DNA of 54,705 bases from Actinomycetota bacterium (GTDB lineage: Bacteria; Actinomycetota; Actinomycetes; S36-B12). Shown here one piece after another: positions 3,395 through 46,291 of the stretch. Location: assembly GCA_009699315.1 (NCBI GenBank), contig WLOK01000002.1, positions 1 to 54,705 of the forward strand. The letters run 5' to 3'. A program made the position numbers and the translations under genes. Position 1 is the stretch's first letter; every line of letters starts with the position of its first letter. The notes under the pieces are model-generated. The model made no database searches and was not told where the DNA came from. It worked only from the letters and a program-made list of their open reading frames with translations.

Positions 3395-4519
3395 TTAACC
3401 AAGGTGACGAGTGTGCGTCGCTTCCGCAAACCCGAGCAGGGAAGCGTGCCCGTCGGAAAACCAGGAAATCGTAGAGATGGAGCAGGGCGAAAGTTCCATT
3501 CGAAACACCGACTGCAATGGGGCCTCGAGCGCTCTTCCCACCAGGATCTTCGTGGGAGTCACGTGACTTATCACGGCAACGCGAAGCCCGTGGTGTCTGG
3601 CGATGATGTCTCGTCGGGCCTCTTCCACCCGAGATCGAACCTCGTTGAACGTCTCGCCCCCCGGCGGAGCGACATCTGCTGAAGACAGCCATGCGCGCAG
3701 TTGCTCTGGCCAACGTTCGTTGATCTCGGCGTACGTGCAGCCATCCCATTCACCATATGACGCCTCAGCGATACCGCCATGAATCTCCAGCGGGCAACCC
3801 AATGCGTCCGCCACAAACCCGGCTGTCTGTCGGGTACGGAGCAGCGGAGAGGTCACCACGATGTCTGCCCCACCACGAGCGATGAGTTCTGCGGCGAGCG
3901 CCTTGGCCTGAGCCTGTCCCAAGTCGGTCAGCGGAAGGTCTGCTCCCCCACTTCCACTAAATCGCTTCTCAGCCGTGTATTCGGTCACCCCATGTCGGCA
4001 GATAAGCGTGGTGGTGGATATGCCGAGATTCCCCGCCCAGCCAAGCTTTGGCGTAGTGGGCGCGGGTGCAGGGTCGCTTTGTGGGCGCACCAGGATTCGC
4101 CCGCTGCCACCGGCTCGCACATCATCGAGACTCATGTTGACTAGGCGATCCGCAGTTGTGTTCTTCTCCCGCGGAATCCACTCGTAGGTCACGTGCGTCT
4201 GATCAAAAGCCGCATGGGCCGCCTTGACGAGATCCTTCATGTTGGCGTTCTTGACTTGCCATCGACCGCTCATCTGCTCGACGACGAGCTTGGAATCCAT
4301 GCGCACTTCAATGGATGCGCTCGGATCGATGTGAGCACATTCATGCAAGCCAGCGACGAGACCGCTGTATTCGGCCACGTTATTGGTGGTCTCACCTACA
4401 TAGTCCGCTAATTCGGCGAGGAGGACTCCGGAGATCGCATCGATCACAACTGCGCCATAAGCGGCCGGACCCGGATTGCCGCGCGAGCCACCATCGGCCT
4501 CAATGATGAAACGGCGCAC
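3395..4519 (-). CDS. Bifunctional RNase H / histidine-phosphatase (Rv2228c-like)
   Basis: N-terminus has ADGGSRGNPGPAAYG (RNase HI). C-terminus has RHGVTEYT...SG and a HisPhos-like ending. Confidence 0.85.
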   Translation of the reverse strand: MRRFIIEADGGSRGNPGPAAYGAVVIDAISGVLLAELADYVGETTNNVAEYSGLVAGLHECAHIDPSASIEVRMDSKLVVEQMSGRWQVKNANMKDLVKAAHAAFDQTHVTYEWIPREKNTTADRLVNMSLDDVRAGGSGRILVRPQSDPAPAPTTPKLGWAGNLGISTTTLICRHGVTEYTAEKRFSGSGGADLPLTDLGQAQAKALAAELIARGGADIVVTSPLLRTRQTAGFVADALGCPLEIHGGIAEASYGEWDGCTYAEINERWPEQLRAWLSSADVAPPGGETFNEVRSRVEEARRDIIARHHGLRVAVISHVTPTKILVGRALEAPLQSVFRMELSPCSISTISWFSDGHASLLGFAEATHTRHLG

Positions 4520-4523
4520 GAAA

Positions 4524-5294
4524 CTACAGGCCCGACTCGGCGGTGCGGATCAGAATGCGACGGCACTCTTCGCAGCGCAACAGTTCGTGAGAAGGCGCCT
4601 CGCGAATGCGATTGATGTCCACTGCCGTGAGTTCCATGTGACAGCCCTCGCAGCGTCCGCGGTGCAATGCGGCAGCTGCCACACCGTCATGATCGGCCCG
4701 CAACTTCTCGTAGAACTTGAGCAAATCTGCGGGGACCTCACCAGCCATCAACGCCCGCTCATTCGTGAGTTCGGCTCTCTCTACACCAAGGGCATCGGCG
4801 GCGACATCCCGAGCCTCATTCGCTGCTGCCGAATCGACAGCAAGACCATCACGTCGAGTCACGAGCGCCGCAAGCTCGTGTTCTGCAATCTCCACGCGCT
4901 CCATGATCTCGATCTCCACATCCTCGAGATCGGCCTGTCGACGCGCAAGTGAGCCGAGCTCATGTTGGAGGTTCTCCAACTGCTTGGGATCGTTGATGCT
5001 GCCGGAGTCGAGCAAATGTTGATCCTTAGATACCCGTTGGCGCACCAACTCGACATCAGCATCGGCCCGGTTCTGCTCACGCCGAAGATCGAAGAGGGCG
5101 GCTTCGGCACCAGCGATCTCGTCGTCAAGCGCCATGACCTCCGCATGGAGGCTAGCCGCAGTGACCGCCTCAGGTAGGGTACGCGCGCGATGGGCGTTGC
5201 GGTCTAACTCGCTGTCGACCTTCTGCAGGTCCAACAACCGGATCTGAATGAACGGATCGATGTTCAGGGCATGCTCCTCAGATGTGCGGTCCAC
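4524..5294 (-). CDS. C4-type zinc-ribbon coiled-coil protein (DUF164, Rv2229c-like)
   Basis: Coiled-coil body plus a C-terminal CEGC...CEEC zinc ribbon. Start is uncertain: GTG 5294 has no SD, while CTG 5267 is preceded by GAGGAG. Confidence 0.75.
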   Translation of the reverse strand: MDRTSEEHALNIDPFIQIRLLDLQKVDSELDRNAHRARTLPEAVTAASLHAEVMALDDEIAGAEAALFDLRREQNRADADVELVRQRVSKDQHLLDSGSINDPKQLENLQHELGSLARRQADLEDVEIEIMERVEIAEHELAALVTRRDGLAVDSAAANEARDVAADALGVERAELTNERALMAGEVPADLLKFYEKLRADHDGVAAAALHRGRCEGCHMELTAVDINRIREAPSHELLRCEECRRILIRTAESGL

Positions 5295-6091
5295 GGATCG
5301 GTCACGATTCGCGACACGTCCACCGTAGCGCCCGGCAGCCCCACGCGAAGAACCCGCGCAAGGTCCTCCAGCCACGGCCACTCTGATGCCCAGTGGGACA
5401 CGTCGATGACGGCGCATCCTCCGGCGAGGACGTGGTCCTGGATGCGGTGGTGCTTGAGATCAGAGGTGACGTAGACGTCAGCCCCTGCAGCGGTCGCGGC
5501 GCTCAACAACGAGTCACCTGAGCCCCCACAGACGGCCACTCGAACCACCCGATGTGACGCGTCACCAGCGACTCGTACGCCGTGGGCGGTCCCTGGCAGA
5601 TCAGCAGCCACACGATTCGCGAAATCTCCCAAGCTCATCGGCTCGGCCAAAGAACCAATGCGACCGAGTCCAGTTTTCGGATCGCTGAGCGGGGATAGCG
5701 GTACACAATCGTGAACACCGAGCGCGGCGGCGAGTGCGTCGGAAACACCAGGGAATGCGTTGTCTGCATTCGTGTGTGCGTTAGCCAGCGCGATGCCCGC
5801 TCGAATGAGGTCGTGCACAGTTCGGCCCGCGACGGTGTCAGCTGCCACCGAGGTCACACCACTCAGAAAGAGCGGGTGGTGGGTGACGATCATGTTGTAC
5901 GAACCTGCAGCGGCTTGCGCGACAACCGCAGGCACGGGGTCGACTGCCAGCAGGATCCGCAGCGCCGGAGCAGCCGGATCACCACAGATGAGCCCGAAGG
6001 CGTCCCAACCCTCAGCCAGTTCCACCGGATAGGCGTCGGCGATCACCCCCAGAGCATCAGCCACCGTGGCCGTATTGAGGGATGCCTGCAT
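5264..6091 (-). CDS. Nif3-like dinuclear metal centre protein
   Basis: 275 aa with the NIF3 pattern (MIVTHHPL, NAHTNAD, VYVTSDLKHH). Confidence 0.85.
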   Translation of the reverse strand: MQASLNTATVADALGVIADAYPVELAEGWDAFGLICGDPAAPALRILLAVDPVPAVVAQAAAGSYNMIVTHHPLFLSGVTSVAADTVAGRTVHDLIRAGIALANAHTNADNAFPGVSDALAAALGVHDCVPLSPLSDPKTGLGRIGSLAEPMSLGDFANRVAADLPGTAHGVRVAGDASHRVVRVAVCGGSGDSLLSAATAAGADVYVTSDLKHHRIQDHVLAGGCAVIDVSHWASEWPWLEDLARVLRVGLPGATVDVSRIVTDPWTAHLRSMP

Positions 6092-6128
6092 GGCTGAAGG
6101 TTAGCCGTAGATGGCATGATTCAGCCGC

Positions 6129-6205
6129 GGGCCTGTAGCTCAGTTGGTTAGAGCGCTTCCCTTACAAGGAAGATGCCGGGGGTTCGAGTCCCTCCAGGCC
6201 CACCA
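6129..6205 (+). tRNA. tRNA-Val (anticodon TAC), CCA encoded
   Basis: Acceptor stem gggcctg/caggccc. Anticodon stem cttcc/ggaag with loop CTTACAA. T-loop GGTTCGAGTCC. Confidence 0.9.
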
Positions 6206-6211
6206 CACCTA

Positions 6212-6241
6212 CCAAGGCCAAGCCCTAGCGCTTGGCCTTGG
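6212..6241. terminator. Stem-loop between tRNA-Val and the convergent DUF3052 gene
   Basis: Perfect 12-bp stem ccaaggccaagc / gcttggccttgg with a 6-nt loop. The right arm overlaps the last codons of the minus-strand CDS. Confidence 0.5.
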
Positions 6242-6641
6242 GCGCAACCAGACGAGTGCCCTGCCAGTCTCGCGAGGCGCTCACGGTGGAGGTCTGCTGC
6301 AATCCGGCTGTCGGAGCAGCATCAGCGATGTCTTCGGGCTCCACGTGTCCGGGTCGGCCGGGCTTGGGCGTAAATAGCCAAATAACGCCGCTATCCGTGA
6401 GCGGTGCGAGTGCGTCCACTAAAGAATCCACGAGGTCACCATCGCTGTCGCGCCACCATAAAATTACGACATCGACAACATCGTTGTGGTCCTCGGCAAC
6501 CAGCTCGAGCCCCTCGACACTCGCTAGTGCGGCGCCCACTTCCTCGGCAACATCATCGTCGTAACCCACCTCCCAGACACTGCTGCCTGGCACGAGACCC
6601 ATCTTCGCCGCGAACGACGTCCCCTCCGCTGGCGCGGTCAC
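6225..6641 (-). CDS. DUF3052 domain protein (Rv2239c-like)
   Basis: GTG 6641 is preceded by AAGGAG. VWEVGYDDDV...VDVVILWWRD...LVD is the remembered DUF3052 pattern. Confidence 0.75.
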   Translation of the reverse strand: MTAPAEGTSFAAKMGLVPGSSVWEVGYDDDVAEEVGAALASVEGLELVAEDHNDVVDVVILWWRDSDGDLVDSLVDALAPLTDSGVIWLFTPKPGRPGHVEPEDIADAAPTAGLQQTSTVSASRDWQGTRLVAPKAKR

Positions 6642-6826
6642 GATTCTCCTTCGGTCGGGCACCACTGAACGATGCGTGGGGTTAGTCCACCGGAATGGGG
6701 CCCCAAGCGCAAGCCCCATGAGAAAAATTCGTCAGAGAAATTCCGGATTCACACTCACATAGGCCAAGATGGACCCAGTCCGCAGGATCGGCGATCCCGA
6801 GCCTGCCCACGATGGAGGGTCCCACC

Positions 6827-9571
6827 ATGACCGCACGTCAAGATGCATTTCGTGAATACGAGCCACTGATCCCGGCCGGGCTACCCAGCCAGTATGTCGA
6901 CGTTGATCCAGACGAGACACAGGAGTGGACGAGGGCCCTCGATCAGGTTGTCGACTCCGCAGGTGCCCAGCGCGCCCGATATCTCATGCTCTCGCTTCTC
7001 CGACGTGCGGATGAGCGCAATGTCGGTGTGCCCAGTCTGCGCAGCACCGACTACATCAACACGATCCCGCCCGAGCACGAGCCGTGGTTCCCGGGTGATG
7101 AAGACATCGAACGAAAAATTCGTTCCTACATTCGCTGGAATGCCGCGATCATGGTTCATCGCGCGCAACGGCCCGGTGTCGGAGTGGGTGGACACATCTC
7201 CACCTACGCCTCAGCATCCACGTTGTACGAAGTCGGTTTCAACCACTTCTTCCGCGGTCCCGATCACGTCGGTGGCGGAGATCAAGTGTTCTTCCAGGGC
7301 CACGCCTCCCCCGGCATCTACGCGCGCGCCTTCCTCGAGGGACGTCTGAGCGAGGGACAACTAGACGGGTTCAGGCAGGAGCTCACTCAGCCTCAATCCC
7401 TTCCCTCGTATCCGCATCCGCGTCTCATGCCGTGGTTCTGGCAGTTCCCCACGGTCTCCATGGGGCTAGGACCTCTCCATGCGATTTACCAGGCCCGCTT
7501 CAATCGCTATCTCCACGACCGAGGCATTAAAGACACGAGCCAGCAGCGGGTGTGGGCATTTCTAGGCGACGGCGAGATGGACGAGGTCGAGAGCATCGGC
7601 GCCATCGGCCTCGCGGCACGAGAGCGTCTCGACAATCTGACCTTCGTGGTCAACTGCAACCTGCAACGACTCGATGGACCGGTCCGCGGCAACGGAAAGA
7701 TCATTCAAGAACTTGAGTCGGTTTTCCGCGGTGCCGGATGGAATGTTCTCAAGGTGGTGTGGGGCCGCAATTGGGATCCCCTACTCGCGCAAGATCGCGA
7801 GGGTGCGCTCGTCAACATCATGAACTCCACACCCGACGGTGACTTCCAAACGTACAAAGCCGAAGACGGTGCATTTGTCCGCGAGAACTTCTTTGGTCGC
7901 GACCCTCGCACCGCAGCACTCGTGTCGAGTTACTCAGACGAGCAGATCTGGGCGCTTCAGCGAGGCGGTCATGACTATCGCAAGCTCTACGCGGCCTATC
8001 GCGCAGCGACGGAGACGCAAGGCCAACCAACCGTCATCCTCGCTAAGACCATCAAGGGCTGGACCTTGGGATCTCACTTCGAGGGACGCAACGCCACTCA
8101 TCAGATGAAGAAACTCAGCCTCGAAGATTTGAAGGAGTTTCGCGATCGCCTGCGCGTACCGATTGCTGATGACGCCATTGATGCAAAACTTCCGCCCTAT
8201 TTCCACCCGGGTGTTGACAGCGAGGAATACCGGTATTTGCTCGACCGCCGACGCAAGCTCGGTGGAGGCGTACCGGAGCGGAGGGTTCGCAGCAAGCCGC
8301 TACCCATGCCTGAGGATTCGGCATTCGACACGATCCGACACGGCTCCGGCAAACAACAGGTCGCCACAACAATGGCTTTTGTCCGACTTTTGAAAGACCT
8401 TATGAAGGATCCACAGATCGGCGAGCGCTTTGTACCGATCATCCCCGATGAGGCGCGCACATTCGGAATGGATTCCCTCTTCCCCACGGCACAGATCTAC
8501 TCACCTTTCGGACAGCGCTACACCTCGGTAGACCGCGAACACATCCTCAGCTACAAGGAATCGACAACCGGTCAGATCCTGCACGAAGGCATCAACGAGG
8601 CGGGTTCCGTCGCTTCATTCATTGCCGCGGGTTCTGCCTACTCCACTCACGGTGAGCCCATGATTCCGATCTACATCTTCTACTCGATGTTCGGTTTTCA
8701 GCGCACAGGCGATGCGTTTTGGGCCGCGATGGACCAGATGTGCCGGGGCTTCGTACTCGGGGCTACCGCAGGCCGCACCACACTCAACGGTGAAGGCCTG
8801 CAACATCAAGACGGTCATTCAATGTTGCTTGCCTCCACGAACCCCGCAGTCGTCGCCTACGACCCGGCGTTCTCCTACGAAATCGCACACATCGTTAAAG
8901 ACGGTCTGCGACGTATGTACGGCGAGAACTCCGAAAACATCTACTACTACCTCACTGTGTACAACGAGCCCTATGTGCAACCCGTTGAACCGGCAGACGT
9001 GGACGTCGAAGGAATCATCCGCGGCATGCATCTCATCTCACCGGCGAAAGAGAACTCCACTCCTCGGGCACAACTACTGGCGTCAGGCGTGGGAGTCAAT
9101 TGGGCATTGAAGGCCCAGCAGTTGCTCCATGAAGATTGGGGCATCAACACCGACCTGTGGTCGGTGACTTCTTGGAACGAGTTGCGCAGAGACGGTCTCG
9201 AGGTCGACCGATATAACCTCCTCAACCCCATGTCCGAACGTCGCACGGCGTACGTCACCCAGCGGCTCGCCCATGCGCCCGGACCCGTAATCGCCGTCTC
9301 AGACTGGATGAGGTCCGTGCAAGATCAGATCCGCGAGTGGGTGCCACAGCCGTTTGTTTCTTTAGGCACAGACGGTGCCGGCATGTCCGACACTCGCGGG
9401 GCTTTGCGCCGCCACTTCCTCGTGGATGCCGAGTCGATCGTGACGCAGACATTGTCGATTCTGGCTCAGACTGGTGAGGTCGGAGTCGAACGAGTAGCCC
9501 AAGCAATCGATCGGTATCGTCTTAATGATCCATCGGCGGCGGATGCAGGCAACACGGAAGGAGCTAGTTGA
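6827..9571 (+). CDS. aceE: Pyruvate dehydrogenase E1 component (homodimeric type)
   Basis: About 914 aa. [14 protein letters not shown] and GDGEMDE (ThDP motif) are typical of AceE. ATG 6827 follows GGAGGG; ATG 6812 is an alternative start. Confidence 0.92.
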
Positions 9572-36280: not shown

Positions 36281-37238
36281 TCATAAAATTGGAGGCAAAT
36301 CCACCAGAAGTCTGCGCCAGATAAAGGCTGAAATTTCACTCGAAAAGGTCGCTGTCATGTGAGTTTGGTTCCGGAACTTGATCGTTCCTCTTAGCGACAC
36401 TAGTGAGCAAGTGCGCCGAGTAAAATGCATCAGTCGGATCGACGAGAGTCAAATTTGGGATTCTCGACTCAGCCCGTGCAAGCAACCCATCCGGATGTGC
36501 AACTTGAACACGAGCCTGATCGCAGATGCTCGGTGTCGCCAGATTCTTACCGAGACACACCGTGTAGTCGAGACCGGGATTGGGTTGAGACCTAATCACG
36601 GCAACACGAGGGCGCGGGACGGACAATCGGGCAAGAAATCCGGTCATGCCACTGCGCCAAGCCGCCTCCAACTTGACTGGGGACATCGTCCGCCCCTGAG
36701 AATCGCGAATCAAATCTTGGTACTGCCAGGTTCGACCGATAACCAGAACATCGATAGGACCAATTTCACTCAGTTTTTCTACGAGCGAATCGCGCCAAAT
36801 GTCGCACTCAACATAGATACGCTTAAATCTGATTTGGTAGACGGGAACCTGTGCGATAGGGCAGGCTGCATTTGCGAAAAAGTAGAGACGCCACCCATGC
36901 CTCTTCGCCGCACGATCAAGGGCGGGAAGCCAATGAGATGCGTTTGAGTCGCCAATCAGCACCATAGAGTGATTCCCGGATACATCACCGAAAAGGCAGT
37001 TGTCCAGGGGCCGTATCGATACAGTCAACCGACAACCGCGAGTCTGTTCGATGTCCTTCGCTGCCTGCGCGAGCGTCATCGGAACAACAGAATCTACAGG
37101 CAGTCCAGCCGCGGTTGCGGTAAGTGCGAGAACTGGGATACACGCCATCAATGCCGCACGGCCCGCCAGCCGCACCGCAAATGCCCTTCTGCAGACCAAC
37201 ATAGGCCGAAGACACCTCTCAACGCGTCGTTGATTCAA
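36281..37238 (-). pseudogene. Stand-alone paralogue of the last TM helix plus SGNH domain of the neighbouring acyltransferase, with an apparent +1 frameshift near its 3' end
   Basis: Collinear similarity to the C-terminal ~290 aa of the 34160-36211 product. After ...DPTDAF the similarity continues in another frame (TCSLVSLRGTIKFRNQTHMTATFSSEI) to a TGA at 36281. The annotated frame stops at 36336. Confidence 0.55.
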
Positions 37239-38758
37239 CTTGCGGTCCCCTCCTGTGCGAGAACACCCGCGCGAATTGAATGGGCATATCTGAACTCGAC
37301 GACCACGAAATCGGAATTAACACCTCCGGTGTATTGGAATCGCTTCGACTTATGGGGAAGATTCAGGGGAAATGCGCATTTCTTCTGCCCCGGGAAACAG
37401 ACGATGACGATTGTCAAATCGGCGGCGATCTGCCCCCAATCACCATCAGCGATTCGATCCCCCTTCGAGGCCAACAAATGACAGTGCAGTCCAAACGCGA
37501 TCGGCAATGCGTAGTAGCCGGCAACCCCGCAAGGTTCTGTGATAATGGACCGAGCTTGATTTGCGAGAATGGGTGCAAAAGCACCACGCGACCTCTCCGT
37601 AGCAACCGTGTGCGCAAGTACCCCCACCTGCATAATGAGAACGGCAATAGCGACACAGGCAACTGGTATGCGAATCAGCAATAATGCTCTGCCGCTAACG
37701 ACTCCCCAGAGCCAAGTGACTGAATACGCAACCGCGATCGCGAAGCATCCCCACATGGGGAGTAGAAACCTCGGGGCACCGTATTGCATAGTCAATCCGT
37801 AGAAGGCCAAGAAGGCGATTCCCACTACCACCGGTGACGCCAGAACGGGGAGCACTCTTCCCCGAATTGAGACAATGACCGCTAGAACTACGAGACTGAG
37901 GGCAAGAACTAGGAGAGTTGTACCAGCGATAGGGAACCCCGCTTTGATAGCGAGGCACGGCTTGCACAGCATCGGACCATCCAATGCTCGCCACTGTGCA
38001 AGGAAGTCGAGGCTCTTGCCGCGTCCGCCTTGAAACTCACTGGCTTCGAGCAGTCGCGACTGAGGTCCACCGAATCGCTGGAATGCATCGATCACCCATG
38101 GCACCCAGCCGACGATGAGGCCAAATACGAGAGATGCGAAAGCCAACCCTCGCCATTTCCAAGATCCCAGATGGATCATTATCAACAAACATAGGGTGAC
38201 TCCGACAAAAACGACGAGACTGTCAACTGGACGAAAGAGGGCAACTACTGCCAGGGAACATGCCGTGGCAGCAATTGCGAGTTTTGACTTGTTTTGGACA
38301 GCCAATACCGCCCACCCGATAGCGCTCACTGCCCCAAAGGCAACCCAAAGGTTGGGGAAAATAAGAGATCCCGAGATCACCCAGATCCACGAGAGAAGCA
38401 GAATGCTGGCGGCCAGGGGCGCGTTCCATCGTCCGAGTCCACGCACTCGAATCCACGGCAGAAAAGCAACCACGAACCCGATCGACGATGTGAACGCAAC
38501 ATAAGCCCGGATGATTGTGGGGCTGGACGTCCAAACTGACACTGGGGAGACAAGCCACGCCTCCCCGAAAGCGCGCGGAGCAGAGAAATACGGTGCGGGC
38601 ATGGCTGATGATGTTTGGCCCAAATAGAGGACCTCATCCCATCGAAGTGGAACGGCGCGAATGACGGGTATCTGAACAATAAGGTAAACAAGCCCGATCG
38701 CGACCAGTCCCAAAGTTGGCGCCCAGCTCGAACTGCAGAATCTGCGCACAACCCCCAT
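37235..38758 (-). CDS. Large polytopic membrane protein, probable GT-C-type glycosyltransferase (ArnT/PMT-like)
   Basis: 507 aa, about 11-12 TM helices with a cytoplasm-facing N-terminus and a soluble C-terminal tail. Stop overlaps the downstream TTG (TTGA). Family assignment rests on architecture only. Confidence 0.45.
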   Translation of the reverse strand: MGVVRRFCSSSWAPTLGLVAIGLVYLIVQIPVIRAVPLRWDEVLYLGQTSSAMPAPYFSAPRAFGEAWLVSPVSVWTSSPTIIRAYVAFTSSIGFVVAFLPWIRVRGLGRWNAPLAASILLLSWIWVISGSLIFPNLWVAFGAVSAIGWAVLAVQNKSKLAIAATACSLAVVALFRPVDSLVVFVGVTLCLLIMIHLGSWKWRGLAFASLVFGLIVGWVPWVIDAFQRFGGPQSRLLEASEFQGGRGKSLDFLAQWRALDGPMLCKPCLAIKAGFPIAGTTLLVLALSLVVLAVIVSIRGRVLPVLASPVVVGIAFLAFYGLTMQYGAPRFLLPMWGCFAIAVAYSVTWLWGVVSGRALLLIRIPVACVAIAVLIMQVGVLAHTVATERSRGAFAPILANQARSIITEPCGVAGYYALPIAFGLHCHLLASKGDRIADGDWGQIAADLTIVIVCFPGQKKCAFPLNLPHKSKRFQYTGGVNSDFVVVEFRYAHSIRAGVLAQEGTAS

Positions 38759-38799: not shown

Positions 38800-38822
38800 T
38801 CTACCGGCAGAGTGAACTCCAG

Positions 38823-38897
<75 letters not shown>

Positions 38898-38961
38898 GAC
38901 CCCGAGAGTCTAGACGCTCGTCATTCCCCCATGATCAACGCCAGCATGACATCGTTGGGCC

Positions 38962-40332
38962 ATGGATCGACGGCACTTCCTTGGCCTCGTGGGCGTGGCT
39001 GCCCTTGGCGTTGCCACACCTGAGAGTTCAGCAATCTCGTTGCCGGCTAGGTCAAGCAATCCCCTGCCTACCGCCTCGCTCGTATCTCGCTGGGACACCG
39101 ATCCGTGGGCTCGAGGCGCGTACTCAGCATTGCCTGCCGGCACGTCCCCCAACGTGCGCCGGATTCTTGCTGACGCGGTTCTTGGCCACCGAATCGTGCT
39201 CGCAGGTGAGTACGCCAGCCCGTACCACCCATCGACAACAACGGGGGCGTACCTCTCGGGTCAACATGCAGCACAACGGATCCTCAATCATGCCCAGCCA
39301 CGCACCGCAATCGTGATCGGTGCAGGCATGGCCGGAGCAGCAGCGGCGCAGAAGTTGGCGCAGGCTGGTGTGCGAGTCAAGGTCATCGAAGCTCAAAATC
39401 GAGTCGGTGGAAGAATTCGTAGCGAAAACTCGTGGGGTGCTCCAGTCGAGCTTGGCGCAGCATGGATTCACGGCACACGCGATAACCCCATAGTCCCCTT
39501 AGCAAAGAAGCAAAATCTCCCACTCATTCGAACCGATTACGAAAACTCAATCGCGCGCGACACGATGACCGGTCGCGAATCTGAGGCAGCAGATCGACGA
39601 TCAACACAGTTGGTGCGACTGACTGAATCGATCGATGACGCGTGGCCACCTCAATCGCAGAGTGTGGGCGGCTGGTTAGCCAATCAGGGCTGGAAGCGTG
39701 ATCGCATCGGCGTATGGGCTGAGGCAACCGAGATCACCCAGGAGTACGGCATCGACCCAGCGGCACTGGGCGTTCGCGCATACTCCGAGGGCGGCACCTA
39801 CCAAGGCGGCGATGTAATGGTCGGTGGTGGTTACAGCTCCATCGTGAGCGGGCTCCTGACAGATGTGACTGTTCAGCGCAGCACTCCTATTCGCGACGTC
39901 TCAATCGCCGGCCAGCAGGTCGAGATGCGGACTAATGACGGGCGCATCTTGCGAGCCGATGCAGTAGTTATCGCTGTGCCGTTGGCGCTACTGCGCGCTC
40001 AGTACCCGCTCATCGCTGATCTGACACCAGCCGTACGCCGCGCCCTGACAAGTCTTCGCACGGGCGATCTCGAGAAGGTCGTGCTGCGCTACGACCGACA
40101 GTGGTGGGGCGACTATCGCGTCTACGGCATCGTGGGCGGTGGCGCACCGGGAGCACCGGCGGGTAGCCCGGCGGCACTGCGATGGACTGAGTTCTATTCG
40201 CTCACCGACGTGCTCGGATTTCCCGCACTAGTGGGATTCTCTGGCGGGTCTGCGGCCGCCACGAGGCCAAAGTCCGACGCAGGGTGCGTACGAGAGGCCA
40301 CTGCCGCGCTACAAGCCGCATTTCACGGCTAA
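38962..40332 (+). CDS. Tat-signal flavin amine oxidase family protein with a permuted domain order
   Basis: MDRRHFLGLVG twin-arginine signal. Residues ~40-108 resemble the usual C-terminal FAD segment (RWDTDPWARGAYS...VLAGEYAS...GAYLSG..AA). The GxGxxG motif (VIGAGMAG) appears only at ~120. Confidence 0.75.
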   Translation: MDRRHFLGLVGVAALGVATPESSAISLPARSSNPLPTASLVSRWDTDPWARGAYSALPAGTSPNVRRILADAVLGHRIVLAGEYASPYHPSTTTGAYLSGQHAAQRILNHAQPRTAIVIGAGMAGAAAAQKLAQAGVRVKVIEAQNRVGGRIRSENSWGAPVELGAAWIHGTRDNPIVPLAKKQNLPLIRTDYENSIARDTMTGRESEAADRRSTQLVRLTESIDDAWPPQSQSVGGWLANQGWKRDRIGVWAEATEITQEYGIDPAALGVRAYSEGGTYQGGDVMVGGGYSSIVSGLLTDVTVQRSTPIRDVSIAGQQVEMRTNDGRILRADAVVIAVPLALLRAQYPLIADLTPAVRRALTSLRTGDLEKVVLRYDRQWWGDYRVYGIVGGGAPGAPAGSPAALRWTEFYSLTDVLGFPALVGFSGGSAAATRPKSDAGCVREATAALQAAFHG

Positions 40333-40402
40333 CTAACAGGTTCGGGGCCCAGCCGGGGGGTCATCCCCTGACGATCGGTCGTTGGTATTCTTCTGGGGCT
40401 GA

Positions 40403-40478
40403 TCCCGCATAGCTCAATTGGCAGAGCATACGACTGTTAATCGTAGGGTTCCTGGTTCGAGTCCAGGTGCGGGAGCCA
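40403..40478 (+). tRNA. tRNA-Asn (anticodon GTT), CCA encoded
   Basis: Acceptor stem tcccgca/tgcggga. Anticodon loop CTGTTAA. T-loop GGTTCGAGTCC. Confidence 0.9.
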
Positions 40479-40487
40479 CGTGTTTCG

Positions 40488-40883
40488 TTAGTCGTCCCGA
40501 CCCTCAGACTCTGTTTCCTGCTCTGAGTTCGCTCCACCGGTGGCACCAGATGCGCCCGTACTTGCGTGCGTGGGTTGTGGCGCGGGTTGAGGCTGCGGAG
40601 TCACGATCACAGGGGCGGGATCCGGAGTAGAAGTCGTCGTTGAGGTCACCTGTGGCACCGGGCCAGAAGCAGCTGCATTGTTCAGTAGACCTCGCAGACG
40701 CGCTGCCTCGGTCTGAAGTGCGATAAGGGTGGTCGATGCCGTCTGTGTGGCCTGAACACTCGTTTGCGGATCACCTTGAGCCCCCGCATTCACCCAGGCT
40801 GTGCCCGACAACGCTGCACCCGCACCCACGATCGCGCCTACCGCTGAGAGTGCTGCGAAGGTTGCTCGAGTTGTCCGCTTCAT
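40488..40883 (-). CDS. Small exported Pro/Thr-rich hypothetical protein
   Basis: ATG 40883 follows AGGGAGA. Signal/anchor segment MKRTTRATFAALSAVGAIVGAGAALS, then a TSTTTSTPDPAPVIVTPQPQPAPQP tail. Confidence 0.55.
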   Translation of the reverse strand: MKRTTRATFAALSAVGAIVGAGAALSGTAWVNAGAQGDPQTSVQATQTASTTLIALQTEAARLRGLLNNAAASGPVPQVTSTTTSTPDPAPVIVTPQPQPAPQPTHASTGASGATGGANSEQETESEGRDD

Positions 40884-40995
40884 GATGTCTCCCTTGGTCT
40901 GGCGTGTAGTTCCATCAGACACTGCCGCGGGCAAGGTGACCCACCAGAGAGGGTTGGTTCCAGGTAAAAGGAGAGCAAGATTCGGCGGGCCGCTA

Positions 40996-41033
40996 TCGGT
41001 CAAAGTTTGTCCGATCTCGGTCAAAGTTTGTCC
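40996..41033 (+). promoter_or_regulatory. Two copies of a 17-bp direct repeat (TCGGTCAAAGTTTGTCC) with 21-bp phasing in the divergent promoter region
   Basis: Exact copies at 40996-41012 and 41017-41033. The TGTCC core recurs at 41093-41097 and inverted (GGACA) at 41070-41074. Confidence 0.5.
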
Positions 41034-41113: not shown

Positions 41114-44100
41114 GTGCGCGGTGTTCAGGTTTTCGTTCGGGCGGTTTTAGGCATAGCGATTGTGGCTGCAGGGGTCTCGGGGGCGGTGCTGCCGGCTCAT
41201 GCGGGTGGCGTCGTTGCCCCGGGTGTTCCGAGGTGGGTGGTGGTGTCGAATCCGGATTTCACGTCGTTTGATGTTGCGTGGACGGCGCCGGCGTCAGATG
41301 GTGGCGCAGAGATCATGGCTTACGACATCGAGTATCGCAAAGTGGGTGAACTGTCCTGGACTTCTTTCGCGCCCGCAATACCGATGTTGACCTCGAGTGC
41401 CGTCAACGGCCTGGATTCGAATTCTACCTATCAGTTCAGAATCGCTGCGGTAAACTCTGCAGGGCAGGGCCCCTGGAGCGTGCAGGACTCCGCGATTGCG
41501 GTGGGTGACTACCATGCTTGCGCGGTGTTGGCAGACGGCACCGTCACATGTTGGGGAGACAACAACTTCGGCCAATTGGGCGACGACACGATTATCAGCA
41601 GCCTCGTGCCGGTACAGGTCTCGGTGTTGAGTATTGACGGATTGACTCCTGCAACCACCGCGGTCAGCGTGAGTACGGGCGGCGATCATTCGTGTGCAGT
41701 GATGGCAGACGGCTCCGCTACCTGCTGGGGCTACAACGGTTACGGCCAATTGGGTGACACGTCTAACACGAGCCGCGAGATTCCCGTAGCGGTGACGGGC
41801 ATCACTGGGTTTACTCCTGCGTCGACCGCTCTCAGTGTGACTGCCGGTGAATTCTTCTCGTGTGCAGTGATGGCGGATGGCACCGCGAAATGCTGGGGCT
41901 ACAACGCCTACGGCCAATTGGGCGACAACACAGCCGGAGATAGCAATATTCCAGTACAGGTCTCGGTGTTGAGCATTGACGGATTGACTACGGCGACCTC
42001 TGCGATCAGCGTGAGTGCCGGTAAAAATCAAGCGTGCGCTGTGATGGTAGATGGCGCCGTCAAATGCTGGGGCTCCAACAGCAACGGCCAATTGGGCAAC
42101 AATTTGACCGCAGACAGCCCCGTGCCAGTCCAGGTATCGGGTATCGACGGAGCGGACGCCGGATCGGCCGCGGTCAGCGTGAGTGCCGGTGACTACCAAT
42201 CGTGTGCGGTCTTGGCAGATGGCACCGCCACATGTTGGGGAGACAACAGCTACGGCCAGCTAGGCAACGCCACAGAAATATCCAGCCCTGTGCCCGTACC
42301 GGTGTCGGCTATCAGCGGGTTGACGCCTGAGGCAACCGCGGTGAGCGTGAGCACCGGCATGTTCCATTCGTGCGCGGTGATGGCGACCGGCACTGCTGCA
42401 TGCTGGGGCAGGGAGAGCCACGGCCAGTTGGGCAGCAACACGGGCGTGAACAGCTCCGTGCCTGTTCCGGTCTCTGGCATCGATGGATTAACACCGGCCA
42501 CAACGGCCGACAATGTGATTGTTCGTGTAAATCAATCGTGCGCCGTCATGGCAGATGTCACCGCCGCATGCTGGGGCAACAACACGCACGGCCAGTTGGG
42601 CAACAACTCAAACACGAACAGCCCTGTGCCTGAGTCAGTGTGGGTTCTCGACGGGTCCACGCCAGCAACCTCTCTTCGCCGGGTTTCGTCTTTCGGTCGC
42701 ACCCTTCAACCTTCGCGCCCTAGTGTGCCGCTGCACGTGGTGACATCGAACGCCACGCCAACTTCTCTTGATGTGGCGTGGACGGTGCCTACTAGTGATG
42801 GTGGCGTATACATCGAGAGTTACACGATTGAATATCGCAAGGTGGGTGAACAGTCGTGGGCGACATTCACGCCCGTGGTTCCGCCAGAAACATCAGCCAC
42901 TGTGGACGGTCTTGATTCAAATTCTACTTATCAGTTCAGAATCGCTGCGGTGAACTCTGCCGGGCCCGGACCCTGGAGTGTGCAGGAGTCCGCGATTGCT
43001 GCTGGTTTCGCACATTCGTGTGCGGTCATGGCGAATAGCACCGTGAAATGCTGGGGCATCAACATCTACGGCCAATTGGGTGACAACACAACCGATGAAA
43101 GTTCCGCGCCGGTGTTGGTGTGGGTCATCGACGGGTCGACACCCGCCACTAGCGCGGTCAGCGTGAGCGCAGGGGGCAATCATTCGTGTGCCCTGATGGC
43201 TGATGGCACCGTCACATGCTGGGGCTACAACTATTACGGCCAGTTAGGCAACAATTCGGGCGCGGACAGTCCCACCCCAGTGCTGGTGTCTGTGTTGAGT
43301 ATCGACGGCTTGACACCCGCTACGACTGCAGTCAGTGTCAGCTTGGGTGCCGGGCATTCATGTGCCTTGATGGCCGATGGTACTGCGAAATGTTGGGGCA
43401 ACAACGGCTATGGCCAATTGGGTGGTGCCACAGGCCAATGGAATTCCGTGCCGGTGCAGGTGTCAATGTTAACTATTGACGGATTGACTCCTGCGACCAC
43501 CGCAGTCAGCGTGAGCGCCGGTTTCTACCACTCGTGTGCGGTAATGGTAGACGGCACTGCGAAGTGCTGGGGCAACAACGCCACCGGCCAGTTGGGTGAC
43601 AACACGACCAATGAACGTTCCGTGCCGGTGTTGGTGTCGGTGTTGAGTATCGACGGGTTGACAGCCGCCACGTCTGCGGTCAGTGTCAGCGCCGGTAGTG
43701 ATCACACGTGTGCTCTGATGGCGGATGGCACCGCGAAATGCTGGGGCTATAACTATTTCGGCCAGTTAGGCAACAATTCGGGCACGGATAGTCACGCCCC
43801 GGTCTCGGTGTTGGAGATCACCGGGTTGACTCCCGCCACGACCGCAGTCAGCGTGAGCACTGGTGAGAACCACTCGTGTGCTCTGATGGCAGATGGCACC
43901 GCGAAGTGCTGGGGCTTTAACAGCTACGGCCAGTTGGGTGACAACACGGTCGATCAACGCCCCGTGCCGGTGTCGGTTTTGGGTATGACCGGGCTGACTC
44001 CCGGATCGACTGCATTCAGCGTGGTCACCGGTGGCTCTCATTCGTGTGCAGCGATGACGGACAGCACAGCCAGGTGCTGGGGTAACAACGCCTACGGTCA

Positions 44101-46291
44101 GTTGGGCAGCAACGCGACGCCAAGCAGCCCTGTGCCCGAGCCGGTGTCGGTTATCGACGGGTCCACGTTGGCGAAGTCGCTTCGCCACGTTTCCGCTTTC
44201 GGTCGGACTCTTGAGCCCTCGCTCCCAAGCGAGCCACTTCTTGTGGCGACCTCGAACGCCACATCGAGCTCCCTTGATGTGTCGTGGACAGCGCCGGCTA
44301 ATGATGGTGGCGCAGCAATCTCGGCCTACACCCTTGAGTACCGCCAGGTAAATGAACCTCTGTGGTCTACTTTCACACCCGCAGATCCGACAGTAACAAC
44401 GGTCACCGTGGATGGTCTTGATTCGGATTCTTCCTATCAGTTCAGAGTCGCTGCGATAAACTCTGCCGGCACCGGCCCATGGAGCGGCAAAGTGCGCTCG
44501 ATTGCAACGAGTGAATCCGATTCGTGTTCGGTTACCGTGGACGGCACCGTCATCTGTTGGGGTAGCAACGACGATGGCCAATTGGGCAATGACTCGACCA
44601 CGGAGAGCTTCGTGCCGGTACAGGTGTCAGGCATCACCGGGTTGACACCGGCAACGAGAGCAGTCAGCGTGGGCACCAAAGCCCGGCATTCTTGTTCATT
44701 GATGGCCGACGGATCCATCACCTGCTGGGGGAAGAACAACAACGGCCAGTTGGGAAATGGCTCTTTTGAGGACAGCCTCGTACCCGTGCCGGTGTCAGAC
44801 ATCACCGGGTTAGCACCCGCCACGACCGCAACCTCCGTGGGCGCGGGTGGCCAGCATTCGTGTGCGCTGATGGCAAACGGCACCGTCACATGTTGGGGAG
44901 ACAACTACTTGGGTCAGTTGGGTAACAACTTCATGGTGTGGTTTAGTTTTGTGCCGGTGCCGGTGTCAGGGATATCCGGATTAACGCCCGAAGCAACAGC
45001 GGTGACCTTGAGCGTCGGTGTGCATTATTCGTGTGTAGTGATGGCAGATGGAACTGCGGCGTGTTGGGGCAAGAACGATTACGGCCAGCTGGGTGACAAC
45101 TCAACCACGGAGAAGCTCGTTCCCGTACCCGTTCGAGGAATCAACGGGTCGACTCCTGGCACAACTGCAGTCAGCGTAAGTGCAGGTGGTACTCATACGT
45201 GTGCGGTGATGGCGGACGGCACCGCAAAATGCTGGGGCGACAACAGGTACGGCCAGTTGGGCGACGACTCAACGACGGACAGTCTTGTGCCAATGCAGGT
45301 CTCGGTGTTGAGCATTGACGGATTGACCCCTGGAACGACCGCAGTCAGCGTGAGCGCCGGTGACGGTCATTCTTGCGCAGTCATGGCGGACGGCAGCGCC
45401 ATCTGCTGGGGCGACAACAGGTATGGCCAGTTGGGTAACGAATCGAATACGGACAGCCATGTACCCGTGCAGGTGTTTGGTATCACCGGGTTGACACCTG
45501 GATCGACCACAATCAGCGTGAGCGCCGGTGGCTACCATTCGTGTGCTTTGTTGGCAGACGGCAACACCACCTGCTGGGGCTACAACAGCCGTGGCGAGTT
45601 AGGTGACAACTCCACGACCAACAGTAACGTGCCGGTGCGGGTGTTAGACACGGCCGGAGCCGGCTCCTCATTCGGCCGTACCTTGGCGGAACCGCTTCCA
45701 CCGGAGCCTTCTCAACTAAGTCGTCCAGTCCGACTCATGGTGACAGATCGCAATGCGGATTCGATTGCGATTAGTTGGGGCGTGCCGACGAGTAACGGCG
45801 GGAAACATATCGATCGCTACCGGGTGAGCTACCGCCCAAAGGGTTCTGCTTCTTGGACCGCTTTCGCGATCGTTCCCTACTCACAACTGCACCTTCGGGT
45901 GCGGGGCTTGCGTACAGGCGTGACCTATGAGTTCCAAGTACGTGCCCATAATGCTGACGGCCTCGGCAATCCTTCACGGATCGTGTCAGAGACGGTTCCG
46001 ATGCGAGCGGCAGCACCGATCGTGGTGCAGAAGTTCCGGGATCAAAGCGCAATCGCGTTAACGTGGCGGGCTGTGAAGGCCCCTGCACACAGTCCCCTGA
46101 CTGCGTACGTGATGTCCTGCCGTGACAGCAACGGCGACACTCTCCGCACCAGCGTTACAACGGTTAACCTGAGCGCATCAATCAGAGTTCTGGCCGCGCA
46201 ACCATATTCCTGCCGCGTAGCAGCCATAACCGAAGCTGGGCGCGGTGTCGGCTCTGAGCGGGTGCAAATCTCTAGCCGCATTCGAGATTGA
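41114..46291 (+). CDS. Giant secreted FN3 / RCC1-repeat protein (3 x [FN3 + 7 RCC1 blades] + 2 FN3)
   Basis: GTG follows GAGGAG. Signal peptide ends ...LPAHA/GG. There are 21 CWGxNxxGQLG-type blades in three runs of seven, and five FN3-like segments. Confidence 0.85.
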   Translation: MRGVQVFVRAVLGIAIVAAGVSGAVLPAHAGGVVAPGVPRWVVVSNPDFTSFDVAWTAPASDGGAEIMAYDIEYRKVGELSWTSFAPAIPMLTSSAVNGLDSNSTYQFRIAAVNSAGQGPWSVQDSAIAVGDYHACAVLADGTVTCWGDNNFGQLGDDTIISSLVPVQVSVLSIDGLTPATTAVSVSTGGDHSCAVMADGSATCWGYNGYGQLGDTSNTSREIPVAVTGITGFTPASTALSVTAGEFFSCAVMADGTAKCWGYNAYGQLGDNTAGDSNIPVQVSVLSIDGLTTATSAISVSAGKNQACAVMVDGAVKCWGSNSNGQLGNNLTADSPVPVQVSGIDGADAGSAAVSVSAGDYQSCAVLADGTATCWGDNSYGQLGNATEISSPVPVPVSAISGLTPEATAVSVSTGMFHSCAVMATGTAACWGRESHGQLGSNTGVNSSVPVPVSGIDGLTPATTADNVIVRVNQSCAVMADVTAACWGNNTHGQLGNNSNTNSPVPESVWVLDGSTPATSLRRVSSFGRTLQPSRPSVPLHVVTSNATPTSLDVAWTVPTSDGGVYIESYTIEYRKVGEQSWATFTPVVPPETSATVDGLDSNSTYQFRIAAVNSAGPGPWSVQESAIAAGFAHSCAVMANSTVKCWGINIYGQLGDNTTDESSAPVLVWVIDGSTPATSAVSVSAGGNHSCALMADGTVTCWGYNYYGQLGNNSGADSPTPVLVSVLSIDGLTPATTAVSVSLGAGHSCALMADGTAKCWGNNGYGQLGGATGQWNSVPVQVSMLTIDGLTPATTAVSVSAGFYHSCAVMVDGTAKCWGNNATGQLGDNTTNERSVPVLVSVLSIDGLTAATSAVSVSAGSDHTCALMADGTAKCWGYNYFGQLGNNSGTDSHAPVSVLEITGLTPATTAVSVSTGENHSCALMADGTAKCWGFNSYGQLGDNTVDQRPVPVSVLGMTGLTPGSTAFSVVTGGSHSCAAMTDSTARCWGNNAYGQLGSNATPSSPVPEPVSVIDGSTLAKSLRHVSAFGRTLEPSLPSEPLLVATSNATSSSLDVSWTAPANDGGAAISAYTLEYRQVNEPLWSTFTPADPTVTTVTVDGLDSDSSYQFRVAAINSAGTGPWSGKVRSIATSESDSCSVTVDGTVICWGSNDDGQLGNDSTTESFVPVQVSGITGLTPATRAVSVGTKARHSCSLMADGSITCWGKNNNGQLGNGSFEDSLVPVPVSDITGLAPATTATSVGAGGQHSCALMANGTVTCWGDNYLGQLGNNFMVWFSFVPVPVSGISGLTPEATAVTLSVGVHYSCVVMADGTAACWGKNDYGQLGDNSTTEKLVPVPVRGINGSTPGTTAVSVSAGGTHTCAVMADGTAKCWGDNRYGQLGDDSTTDSLVPMQVSVLSIDGLTPGTTAVSVSAGDGHSCAVMADGSAICWGDNRYGQLGNESNTDSHVPVQVFGITGLTPGSTTISVSAGGYHSCALLADGNTTCWGYNSRGELGDNSTTNSNVPVRVLDTAGAGSSFGRTLAEPLPPEPSQLSRPVRLMVTDRNADSIAISWGVPTSNGGKHIDRYRVSYRPKGSASWTAFAIVPYSQLHLRVRGLRTGVTYEFQVRAHNADGLGNPSRIVSETVPMRAAAPIVVQKFRDQSAIALTWRAVKAPAHSPLTAYVMSCRDSNGDTLRTSVTTVNLSASIRVLAAQPYSCRVAAITEAGRGVGSERVQISSRIRD
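41219..42718 (+). repeat. Intragenic module 1 (FN3 + 7 RCC1 blades), 1500 nt
   Basis: Starts at PGVP. The FN3 core tcagttcagaatcgctgcgg is at 41431. Confidence 0.75.
42719..44224 (+). repeat. Intragenic module 2 (FN3 + 7 RCC1 blades), 1506 nt
   Basis: Starts at PSVP. The same FN3 core is at 42931, exactly 1500 nt after module 1. Confidence 0.75.
44225..45706 (+). repeat. Intragenic module 3 (FN3 + 7 RCC1 blades)
   Basis: Starts at PSEP. The FN3 core tcagttcagagtcgctgcg is at 44437, 1506 nt after module 2. Confidence 0.7.

Follow-up and report, generated by a model that had tools for sequence, protein, structure and literature searches.

A circularly permuted flavin amine oxidase with a predicted twin-arginine signal in Actinomycetota

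A stretch of 54,705 nucleotides from an Actinomycetota bacterium of the S36-B12 lineage (GenBank assembly GCA_009699315.1, contig WLOK01000002.1, positions 1 to 54,705 of the forward strand; called here the window, by which we mean the whole stretch analyzed) carries, between two tRNA genes, a complete open reading frame (ORF) for a flavin amine oxidase whose parts stand in an unusual order. Few flavoenzymes have been studied as much as the flavin amine oxidases, which include monoamine oxidases (MAO), the demethylases LSD1 and LSD2, polyamine oxidases (PAO) and L-amino-acid oxidases (LAAO). The order of the chain is taken to be a constant of this family, with the dinucleotide-binding motif GxGxxG first and a segment of the flavin adenine dinucleotide (FAD) site last. 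The Pfam family Amino_oxidase (PF01593) matches the ORF with 168.9 bits against a cut-off of 19.8, split into two stretches. The protein is identical to protein cluster P0001 (100% identity; the cluster is present on 2 contigs), it ends in ...ATAALQAAFHG, and the G+C content of its gene is 61.6%, compared with 59.8% in the window. Features and coordinates are collected in Table 1.

Behind an N-terminal signal, the protein begins with the ~80 residues that are usually the last of a flavin amine oxidase. This moved segment contains W44-D45-x-D-P, G52-A-Y54-S55 and L80-A-G-E83, followed by the final helix of the family at residues 93 to 110. The Rossmann unit comes only afterward, with GxGxxG as G120-A-G122-M-A-G125, the acidic residue at the end of its second β-strand as E143 and RxGGR as R147-V-G-G-R151, and Pfam NAD_binding_8 matches it at residues 118 to 176 (E = 3.8e-17). 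The main match of Amino_oxidase aligns residues 123 to 454 with profile positions 1 to 365 of 443, while the N-terminal part scanned alone (residues 31 to 108) aligns with positions 367 to 443 of 443 (E = 1.3e-14). Alignment with LSD2 (4gu0_A) gives the same picture: LSD2 residues 336–408 and 522–695 pair with residues 113–184 and 280–454 of the query, and LSD2 residues 700–773, the end of its amine-oxidase domain, pair with residues 33–107. In a profile that we built from 77 canonical relatives, residues 32–110 matched nodes 378–455 (E = 1.9e-28) and residues 110–455 matched nodes 30–376 (E = 4.8e-88), both far above chance level. The two matches abut at residue 110, where node 455 is followed by node 30, with no residue missing or duplicated. 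The chain closes in a helix (residues 439–453) at the point where canonical enzymes run on into the W..DP strand.

Rotating the sequence back, so that residues 111–456 were followed by residues 30–110, let the alignments with LSD2 and LSD1 run straight through the native termini (...LQAAFHG followed by RSSNPLPTASLVSRWDTDPW...) and raised the score from 129 to 144 bits; the rotated-back sequence scored 185.1 bits with Pfam Amino_oxidase. Each segment is single-copy in the window by tblastn, which found no second C-terminal FAD-binding segment downstream, in another frame or elsewhere in the window. The window protein is thus a circular permutant, in which each parental segment occurs exactly once, the order is rotated and the old termini are joined by a short linker of 5–7 residues (NHAQPRT). 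As it lacks the collinear order of Rossmann fold, substrate domain and C-terminal FAD segment that is usual for PF01593, we file it as a variant homologue and not as a standard member. An earlier note, made from the letters of this DNA alone, had described the arrangement in these terms: the usual C-terminal segment directly after a twin-arginine signal, GxGxxG only at about residues 118–130, a stop where a canonical member would enter the W..DP segment, and no second C-terminal segment hidden in the 70 nt before the next tRNA gene. All of this was borne out by the Pfam, Protein Data Bank (PDB) and custom-profile alignments and by tblastn; the matches are non-collinear, as it had predicted, and become collinear across the new junction only upon rotation back. 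Given the evidence below, we think it highly probable that this is the gene of a functional flavin amine oxidase of the polyamine-oxidase/LSD branch of PF01593, and that its circular permutation is genuine and natural.

Table 1. The oxidase gene, its parts and its neighbors (positions are those of the window; aa, amino acids of the encoded protein)
Feature	Position	Strand	Remark
Circularly permuted flavin amine oxidase precursor, 456 aa + stop	38962..40332	+	complete ORF
Twin-arginine (Tat) signal peptide, aa 1–24, MDRRHFLGLVGVAALGVATPESSA	38962..39033	+	TIGR01409
Translocated FAD-binding segment, aa 32–110	39055..39291	+	profile nodes 378–455, Pfam 367–443, LSD2 700–773
Tyr54 codon, active-site tyrosine from the moved segment	39121..39123	+	aligns with LSD1 Tyr in ARGSYSY; invariant in 68 homologues
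New junction, aa 109–115 (NHAQPRT)	39286..39306	+	old C-terminal helix to old N-terminal β-strand 1
Main segment, aa 113–455: Rossmann fold and substrate-binding domain	39298..40326	+	profile nodes 30–376; LSD2 336–408, 522–695
Rossmann β-α-β dinucleotide-binding unit, aa 116–151	39307..39414	+	GAGMAG 120–125, E143, R147-x-G-G-R151
ELGAAWIHGTRDNP motif, aa 163–176	39448..39489	+	common to spermine oxidase and N1-acetylpolyamine oxidase
Lys372 codon, conserved flavin-N5 lysine	40075..40077	+	aligns with LSD1 Lys in NLNKVVL; invariant
Terminator-like hairpin followed by a T-rich tail	40368..40385	+	between oxidase stop and tRNA-Asn; pattern match, weak
tRNA-Met (CAT)	38822-38897	-	64 nt upstream of the oxidase ORF
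tRNA-Asn (GTT)	40403-40478	+	70 nt past the oxidase stop codon
507-aa polytopic membrane protein	37235-38758	-	no Pfam match
178-aa secreted Thr/Pro-rich protein	40488-41024	-	no Pfam match
1725-aa predicted secreted protein	41114-46291	+	fibronectin type III domain, then RCC1-type β-propeller repeats

The earlier note had held such a permutation to be structurally plausible, and the predicted structure agrees. An AlphaFold2 model made from the homologue alignment is a single compact fold, with a mean predicted local distance difference test score (pLDDT) of 89.9 and a predicted template modeling score (pTM) of 0.88. The moved segment has pLDDT values of 86–98, and residues 1–29, which comprise the signal, are the sole disordered part (below 50). 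By DSSP, four residues separate the helix at 93–110 from a strand at 115–119, so that in the model Rossmann strand 1 follows the old C-terminal helix almost without a gap. Foldseek placed LSD2, LSD1, maize polyamine oxidase and murine N1-acetylpolyamine oxidase on top among PDB structures (probability 1.00), and the model has the two-domain fold of solved PF01593 members. We propose that the rotation would leave the three-dimensional fold unchanged, with the chain ending in the surface loop by which a canonical chain returns to the FAD domain.

Orthologues with the same order, for which the earlier note had suggested a search, are numerous. In all of the 120 best protein clusters (53–100% identity, about 455 aa), an RR signal comes first, then W..DP/xAGE and then GxGxxG, and 80 loci in species-representative genomes are collinear with residues 1–454, down to 34% identity. 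These loci come from freshwater metagenome-assembled genomes (MAGs) labeled Nanopelagicales, Gaiellales/Thermoleophilia, Acidimicrobiaceae or unclassified Actinomycetota. In an exhaustive search at the 50% clustering level, the top 150 representatives comprised 66 permuted proteins, 77 canonical ones, 6 fragments and 1 multi-domain protein. More distant permuted clusters belong to Ilumatobacter and Ca. Aldehydirespiratoraceae (Acidimicrobiia), and cultured Rhodobacterales have a 405-aa permuted form (Roseobacter sp. HKCCA2468, WP_340244823.1; LSUCC1028; FZCC0069; HKCCA1065) annotated merely as "flavin monoamine oxidase family protein" or "NAD(P)-binding protein." The Rhodobacterales cluster (P0257) has ~50 substrate-domain residues fewer than the actinobacterial form, with a profile match at 5–93 and 149–339. 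The breakpoints hardly vary: nearly all of 67 permuted representatives end 0–5 residues from nodes 374–377, most start at about 374–384, and the spacing from xAGE to GxGxxG is 38–40 residues in 54 of them. NCBIfam holds no model dedicated to these proteins (the best match is HpnE, with 72 bits against a cut-off of 283), none of the PDB sequence matches is a solved structure with the permuted order, all of them being non-collinear, and no paper on a permuted flavin amine oxidase was found in the full-text literature, where journal coverage is partial and the result amounts to absence of evidence only. We came upon no mention of the family in print; it represents a known enzyme family in a new topological variant.

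The N-terminus reads MDRRHFLG and continues with a hydrophobic region and SSA, after which cleavage would be expected. The NCBIfam model TIGR01409 (TAT_signal_seq) matches residues 1–24 with 18.2 bits against a cut-off of 16.7. In our alignment of 68 homologues (53–95% identity), both arginines, R3 and R4, are invariant, and conservation at F6 and L7 reaches at least 90%, which supports the Tat signal read here by the earlier note. An RR motif with a hydrophobic region is found in 48 of 68 permuted relatives and in 36 of 77 canonical ones. A literature search on flavin amine oxidases exported via Tat or located in the periplasm yielded nothing usable. Cofactor-loaded flavoproteins are classical Tat clients, and the protein would fold and take up FAD in the cytoplasm before being exported, folded, via Tat; in a monoderm actinobacterium, it would then act at the cell surface or in the medium. 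A few permuted proteins from the representative search (P0152, P0156, P0158 and P0261) start directly at the '..VPDP..VTRW' strand without a signal peptide. Their starts may have been mis-called, or they may be permuted forms that stay in the cytoplasm; in the second case, permutation and export would not be bound to each other.

Seventy-two columns are invariant across the 68 homologues, and they fall in both segments: W44, D45, G52, Y54, S55, A81 and G82 are among those in the moved segment, and G120, G122, G125, E143, R147, G149, G150, R151, K372 and W408 lie in the main one. The last of these aligns with the LSD1 tryptophan in LFLFWN. In LSD1, the residues corresponding to K372, Y54 and W408 are Lys661, Tyr761 and W695. 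The roles of the flavin-N5 lysine and of the active-site tyrosine and tryptophan are established for LSD1, MAO and PAO. The active site would accordingly draw on both pieces of the chain, with Tyr54 and xAGE supplied by the moved segment and GxGxxG, Glu143, Lys372 and Trp408 by the main one. As to substrate, ELGAAWIHGTRDNP aligns with ELGATWIHGSHGNP in spermine oxidase (SMOX, 7oxl) and ELGAHWIHGPSQDNP in N1-acetylpolyamine oxidase (PAOX, 5lae), which share the motif ELGAxWIHG..NP, and the top PDB matches of the Rossmann-proximal 104 aa are SMOX (E = 3.6e-16) and PAOX (E = 2.2e-14). This motif, together with a closest relationship to PAO, SMOX and LSD and not to MAO or LAAO, would by sequence place the protein in the polyamine/spermine oxidase subfamily. 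Judged from its sequence, the window protein is most likely an exported, polyamine-type, FAD-dependent amine oxidase; that polyamines are its specific substrates is plausible, though we would stop a little short of calling it probable. The predicted reaction is oxidation of a polyamine-like amine with O2 outside the cell, yielding an aminoaldehyde or imine and hydrogen peroxide.

The earlier note had itself named a reading that would undo its proposal, in which translation truly starts near residue 110 and the ~110 codons before it are left over, untranslated, from an upstream paralogue that was truncated. The sole argument for it is that the family does not usually have its motifs in this order, and we regard it as next to impossible. 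In the moved segment (codons 30–112), codon changes are mostly at third positions, with 27 synonymous and 5 non-synonymous changes relative to a 90%-identical orthologue and 8 and 1 relative to a 93%-identical one, the mark of purifying selection in this frame. Residues at the front are invariant among homologues down to 53% identity, the order persists in the genome loci down to 34%, and AlphaFold packs residues 30–110 into the fold. Moreover, the sole methionine between Met1 and the Rossmann helix is M123, inside GxGxxG itself, and a protein starting near residue 110 would be left without the xAGE/Tyr FAD-site segment, as the window holds no other copy and only 70 nt remain before tRNA-Asn. 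Codon-level selection and conservation, together with this single copy, rule out an internal start. It is just as hard to credit that assembly created the arrangement, as a chimera or through a mis-join at the tRNA repeats on either side. Public short-read contigs do break at both tRNA genes, where word depth reaches 15367, but the breaks fall outside the ORF, and single contigs of independent runs and studies span the locus. One, from another public lake metagenome, covers 1577 nt from tRNA-Met to tRNA-Asn (38861-40437) with 1 mismatch, and a second covers the signal, the moved segment and the Rossmann junction over 785 nt (38861-39645) with 0 mismatches. With the identical order recurring in 80 genomes of several orders and in Rhodobacterales isolate genomes, these contigs rule out an assembly artifact. 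Some points do weigh against a functional, exported, permuted enzyme. FAD binding, export route, activity and substrate are, for the whole permuted clade, things we infer; no RNA run with the oxidase gene is listed among public runs; the gene neighborhood is not conserved across the permuted family, only within subgroups; the Foldseek template modeling (TM) score of ~0.65 (query-normalized) comes from a sequential alignment of the main segment only, since the aligner is limited to those ~340 residues, and the modeled placement of the moved segment is carried by AlphaFold confidence alone; and the Pfam model TAT_signal (PF10518) scores 16.1, below its cut-off of 22.7. This last score, along with a lipobox-like cysteine in 27 of 68 permuted relatives, which implies that surface anchoring is common in the family, would fit export via Sec, or anchoring by an uncleaved signal, in place of release via Tat. 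We judge this distinctly unlikely for the window protein, in which there is no cysteine in the signal region, the invariant RR pair is followed by F-L and the TIGR01409 score is above its cut-off. The permuted protein might also be a catalytically dead derivative, such as a binding protein or sensor, in favor of which one can cite the long branch that separates the window clade from canonical enzymes. This is very unlikely: GxGxxG, E143, RxGGR, xAGE, K372, Y54 and W408 are all present and invariant by alignment, and FAD-binding and catalytic positions would not be expected to stay so conserved once catalysis had been lost.

The permutation itself probably arose once, after which it would have reached further Actinomycetota as well as Rhodobacterales. 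A single event, with faster divergence in the window's clade, is favored by breakpoints that are nearly identical, by uniform linker spacing and by a profile comparison. The rival history, in which the same permutation arose or reverted several times among bacterial exported amine oxidases, is unlikely, although several observations speak for it. Trees were built by neighbor joining with 100–200 bootstraps from de-permuted, profile-aligned sequences from which junction-adjacent columns had been removed, using all columns, the main segment only or the moved segment only. They place the window protein in an all-permuted clade (17 members at 100% bootstrap, 21 at 82%), but other permuted sequences are mixed among canonical ones along a backbone that is unresolved and essentially star-like. 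Against a single origin, the permuted sequences form one clan in 0 of 100 bootstraps, and the canonical protein P0181 is 48–49% identical to the permuted P0148 and P0166, two proteins that share only ~36% identity with the window protein. Mean distances are also close (1.13 between permuted sequences, 1.16 between canonical ones and 1.23 between the two kinds), the nearest neighbor is permuted for 24 canonical representatives and canonical for 2 permuted ones, and fused tandem proteins indicate that a duplication intermediate is accessible. Yet no split that contradicts monophyly exceeds a bootstrap of 0.53, breakpoints and linker spacing are nearly the same, and, measured against the core-clade profile, permuted sequences from outside that clade come ~30 bits closer than canonical sequences that were held out (area under the curve about 0.8, p about 1e-6), a test that taxonomy and composition may confound. 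The nearest relatives of P0181 itself are all canonical.

The fused proteins just mentioned are P0146 (1449 aa) and P0196 (971 aa), with three and two complete canonical amine-oxidase domains in tandem, respectively. They have low-complexity, eukaryote-looking N-termini and come from the wider family, not from among close relatives; they represent the kind of duplicate from which a circular permutant can be cut. Within the permuted clade, no tandem duplicated or fused intermediate was found. The most parsimonious route would start from a canonical, Tat-exported ancestor whose gene was duplicated in tandem and fused in frame, after which the first main segment and the last C-terminal segment were lost. 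RR signals in the canonical relatives suggest that this ancestor was probably already exported via Tat, and for the signal to be kept, the first main segment would have had to be deleted internally and in frame; a new start codon would not have been enough. We also entertain, as an unlikely idea, that the rotation was not neutral and was either reached more than once at the same surface loop or retained by selection for its effect on the order of folding. Under the latter, the segment of the FAD site would leave the ribosome first, and the Tat signal would sit on a surface strand and not on the buried Rossmann strand 1, which might make cofactor loading or Tat proofreading more effective ahead of export. 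In that case, the family would be a natural experiment on how chain order bears on flavoenzyme maturation and export.

The genes around the oxidase in the window are unrelated to it: a 507-aa membrane protein, SGNH/acyltransferase genes, a 178-aa secreted protein, a protein with fibronectin type III (FN3) and RCC1 repeats, and dnaG. The 1725-aa protein is made up of repeated modules, with an FN3 domain and then RCC1-type repeats, and at least three near-identical ones are visible in its translation. A promoter scan of the intergenic regions found no sigma-70-like site, and terminator-like sites numbered 3 against 1.0 expected by chance, which is weak evidence. Other subgroups have contexts of their own. 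In a Nanopelagicales subgroup (L004–L016, L031, L036 and L051), the oxidase starts 0–38 nt after the gene for a secreted S33-type alpha/beta-hydrolase of ~650 aa (Abhydrolase_1 with a TAP-like C-terminal domain; examples of the pairing are 3984-5948 + in L010 and 5604-6998 + in L005), and an NCS1 permease gene (Transp_cyt_pur) lies about 400 nt downstream of the oxidase; the arrangement looks operon-like. In Gaiellales/Thermoleophilia MAGs (L058, L060–L063, L068 and L069), the permuted RR-signal oxidase stands tail-to-tail, at 0–40 nt, with a canonical paralogue of about 418–480 aa that has no signal (for example, 5992-7332 + and 7369-8628 - in L061). The two are only distantly related (37–47% identity over short stretches) and could be an outside/inside pair for two-step amine oxidation. 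In Rhodobacterales (L083–L085), the permuted oxidase lies between genes for a Crp-family regulator and a universal stress protein (Usp). Because the neighborhood is not conserved, context says little about substrate, and no polyamine transporter or aldehyde dehydrogenase is a conserved neighbor across the loci examined. Actinobacteria of the acI group have been predicted to consume polyamines (PMC5574706). Together with this, the hydrolase and permease neighbors fit organic nitrogen scavenging, and the role of the enzyme would be nitrogen and carbon scavenging by a planktonic freshwater actinobacterium.

That the gene is isolated between two tRNA genes, as the earlier note had stressed, holds for the window and its closest relatives only (tRNA-Met on the minus and tRNA-Asn on the plus strand in the window, L001 and L002, among L001–L080); it is not a family feature, and the flanking is incidental. 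In several Nanopelagicales loci, the oxidase lies ~2.4 kb from a tRNA-Glu/Asp/Phe cluster, and in the Gaiellales group, it lies 40–200 nt after a tRNA-Met on the same strand. Proximity to tRNA genes in three different ways, depending on the subgroup, suggests a mobile or often rearranged position. In five public runs (X1–X5), word depth at 38828-38897 and 40403-40443 is in the thousands, compared with 5–10 in the ORF. Assemblies break at the tRNA genes because near-identical tRNA sequences are common to many community genomes, and most contigs with the oxidase gene are therefore only ~1.6–2 kb long.

Several consequences follow for the enzyme family. The fold can accommodate a chain rotated at the loop that links the substrate domain to the final FAD-domain segment, and the permuted variant has become fixed in a large and diverse family that includes abundant freshwater Actinomycetota and cultured marine Rhodobacterales. 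Plain annotation as "monoamine" or "polyamine oxidase," together with the split Pfam match, means that permuted members can be mistaken for fragments or fusions. For engineers who wish to permute or split MAO- and LSD-type enzymes, the natural breakpoints and linker are validated sites. Being probably exported, the permuted enzymes are candidates for extracellular turnover of polyamines or other amines, and for hydrogen peroxide production, in lakes and the sea, and the cultured strains in the family allow these predictions to be tested directly.

The best matches among solved structures are LSD2/KDM1B and LSD1/KDM1A (4FWE, 4GU0 and 4HSU; 2DW4 and 6NQM), with E = 2e-36 by sequence and 6e-23 in Foldseek. 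They share with the window protein the FAD motifs, the flavin-N5 lysine and the active-site tyrosine and tryptophan. Unlike it, they are eukaryotic nuclear histone demethylases carrying SWIRM, zinc-finger or tower insertions, they have the canonical order and no signal peptide, and they are 17–23% identical to it in structural alignments. SMOX (7OXL), PAOX (5LAE and 5MBX), maize PAO (1B37) and yeast Fms1 (1RSG) are FAD enzymes of similar size with a single domain pair, and like the window protein, these polyamine oxidases have ELGAxWIHG..NP after the Rossmann fold (Foldseek probability 1.00, TM 0.60–0.63); they differ from it in having the canonical order and in being cytosolic, peroxisomal or apoplastic eukaryotic enzymes. 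The canonical bacterial proteins of the "flavin monoamine oxidase family" (for example, P0181 and its kin from Anaerolineae, Gammaproteobacteria and other groups) share 33–39% identity with the window protein, and with other permuted members as much as 49%. Their size and motifs are the same, and a good many carry an RR signal (the 36 of 77 counted above), but their Rossmann strand comes directly after the signal and their W..DP/xAGE segment is C-terminal; they are probably the ancestral stock of the permuted family. Natural circular permutation is well known in other folds, as in swaposin relative to saposin and in the permuted motif orders of DNA methyltransferases. The event there is alike, with each part present once and a short linker between the old termini, in a rotated order that duplication, fusion and double truncation can explain.

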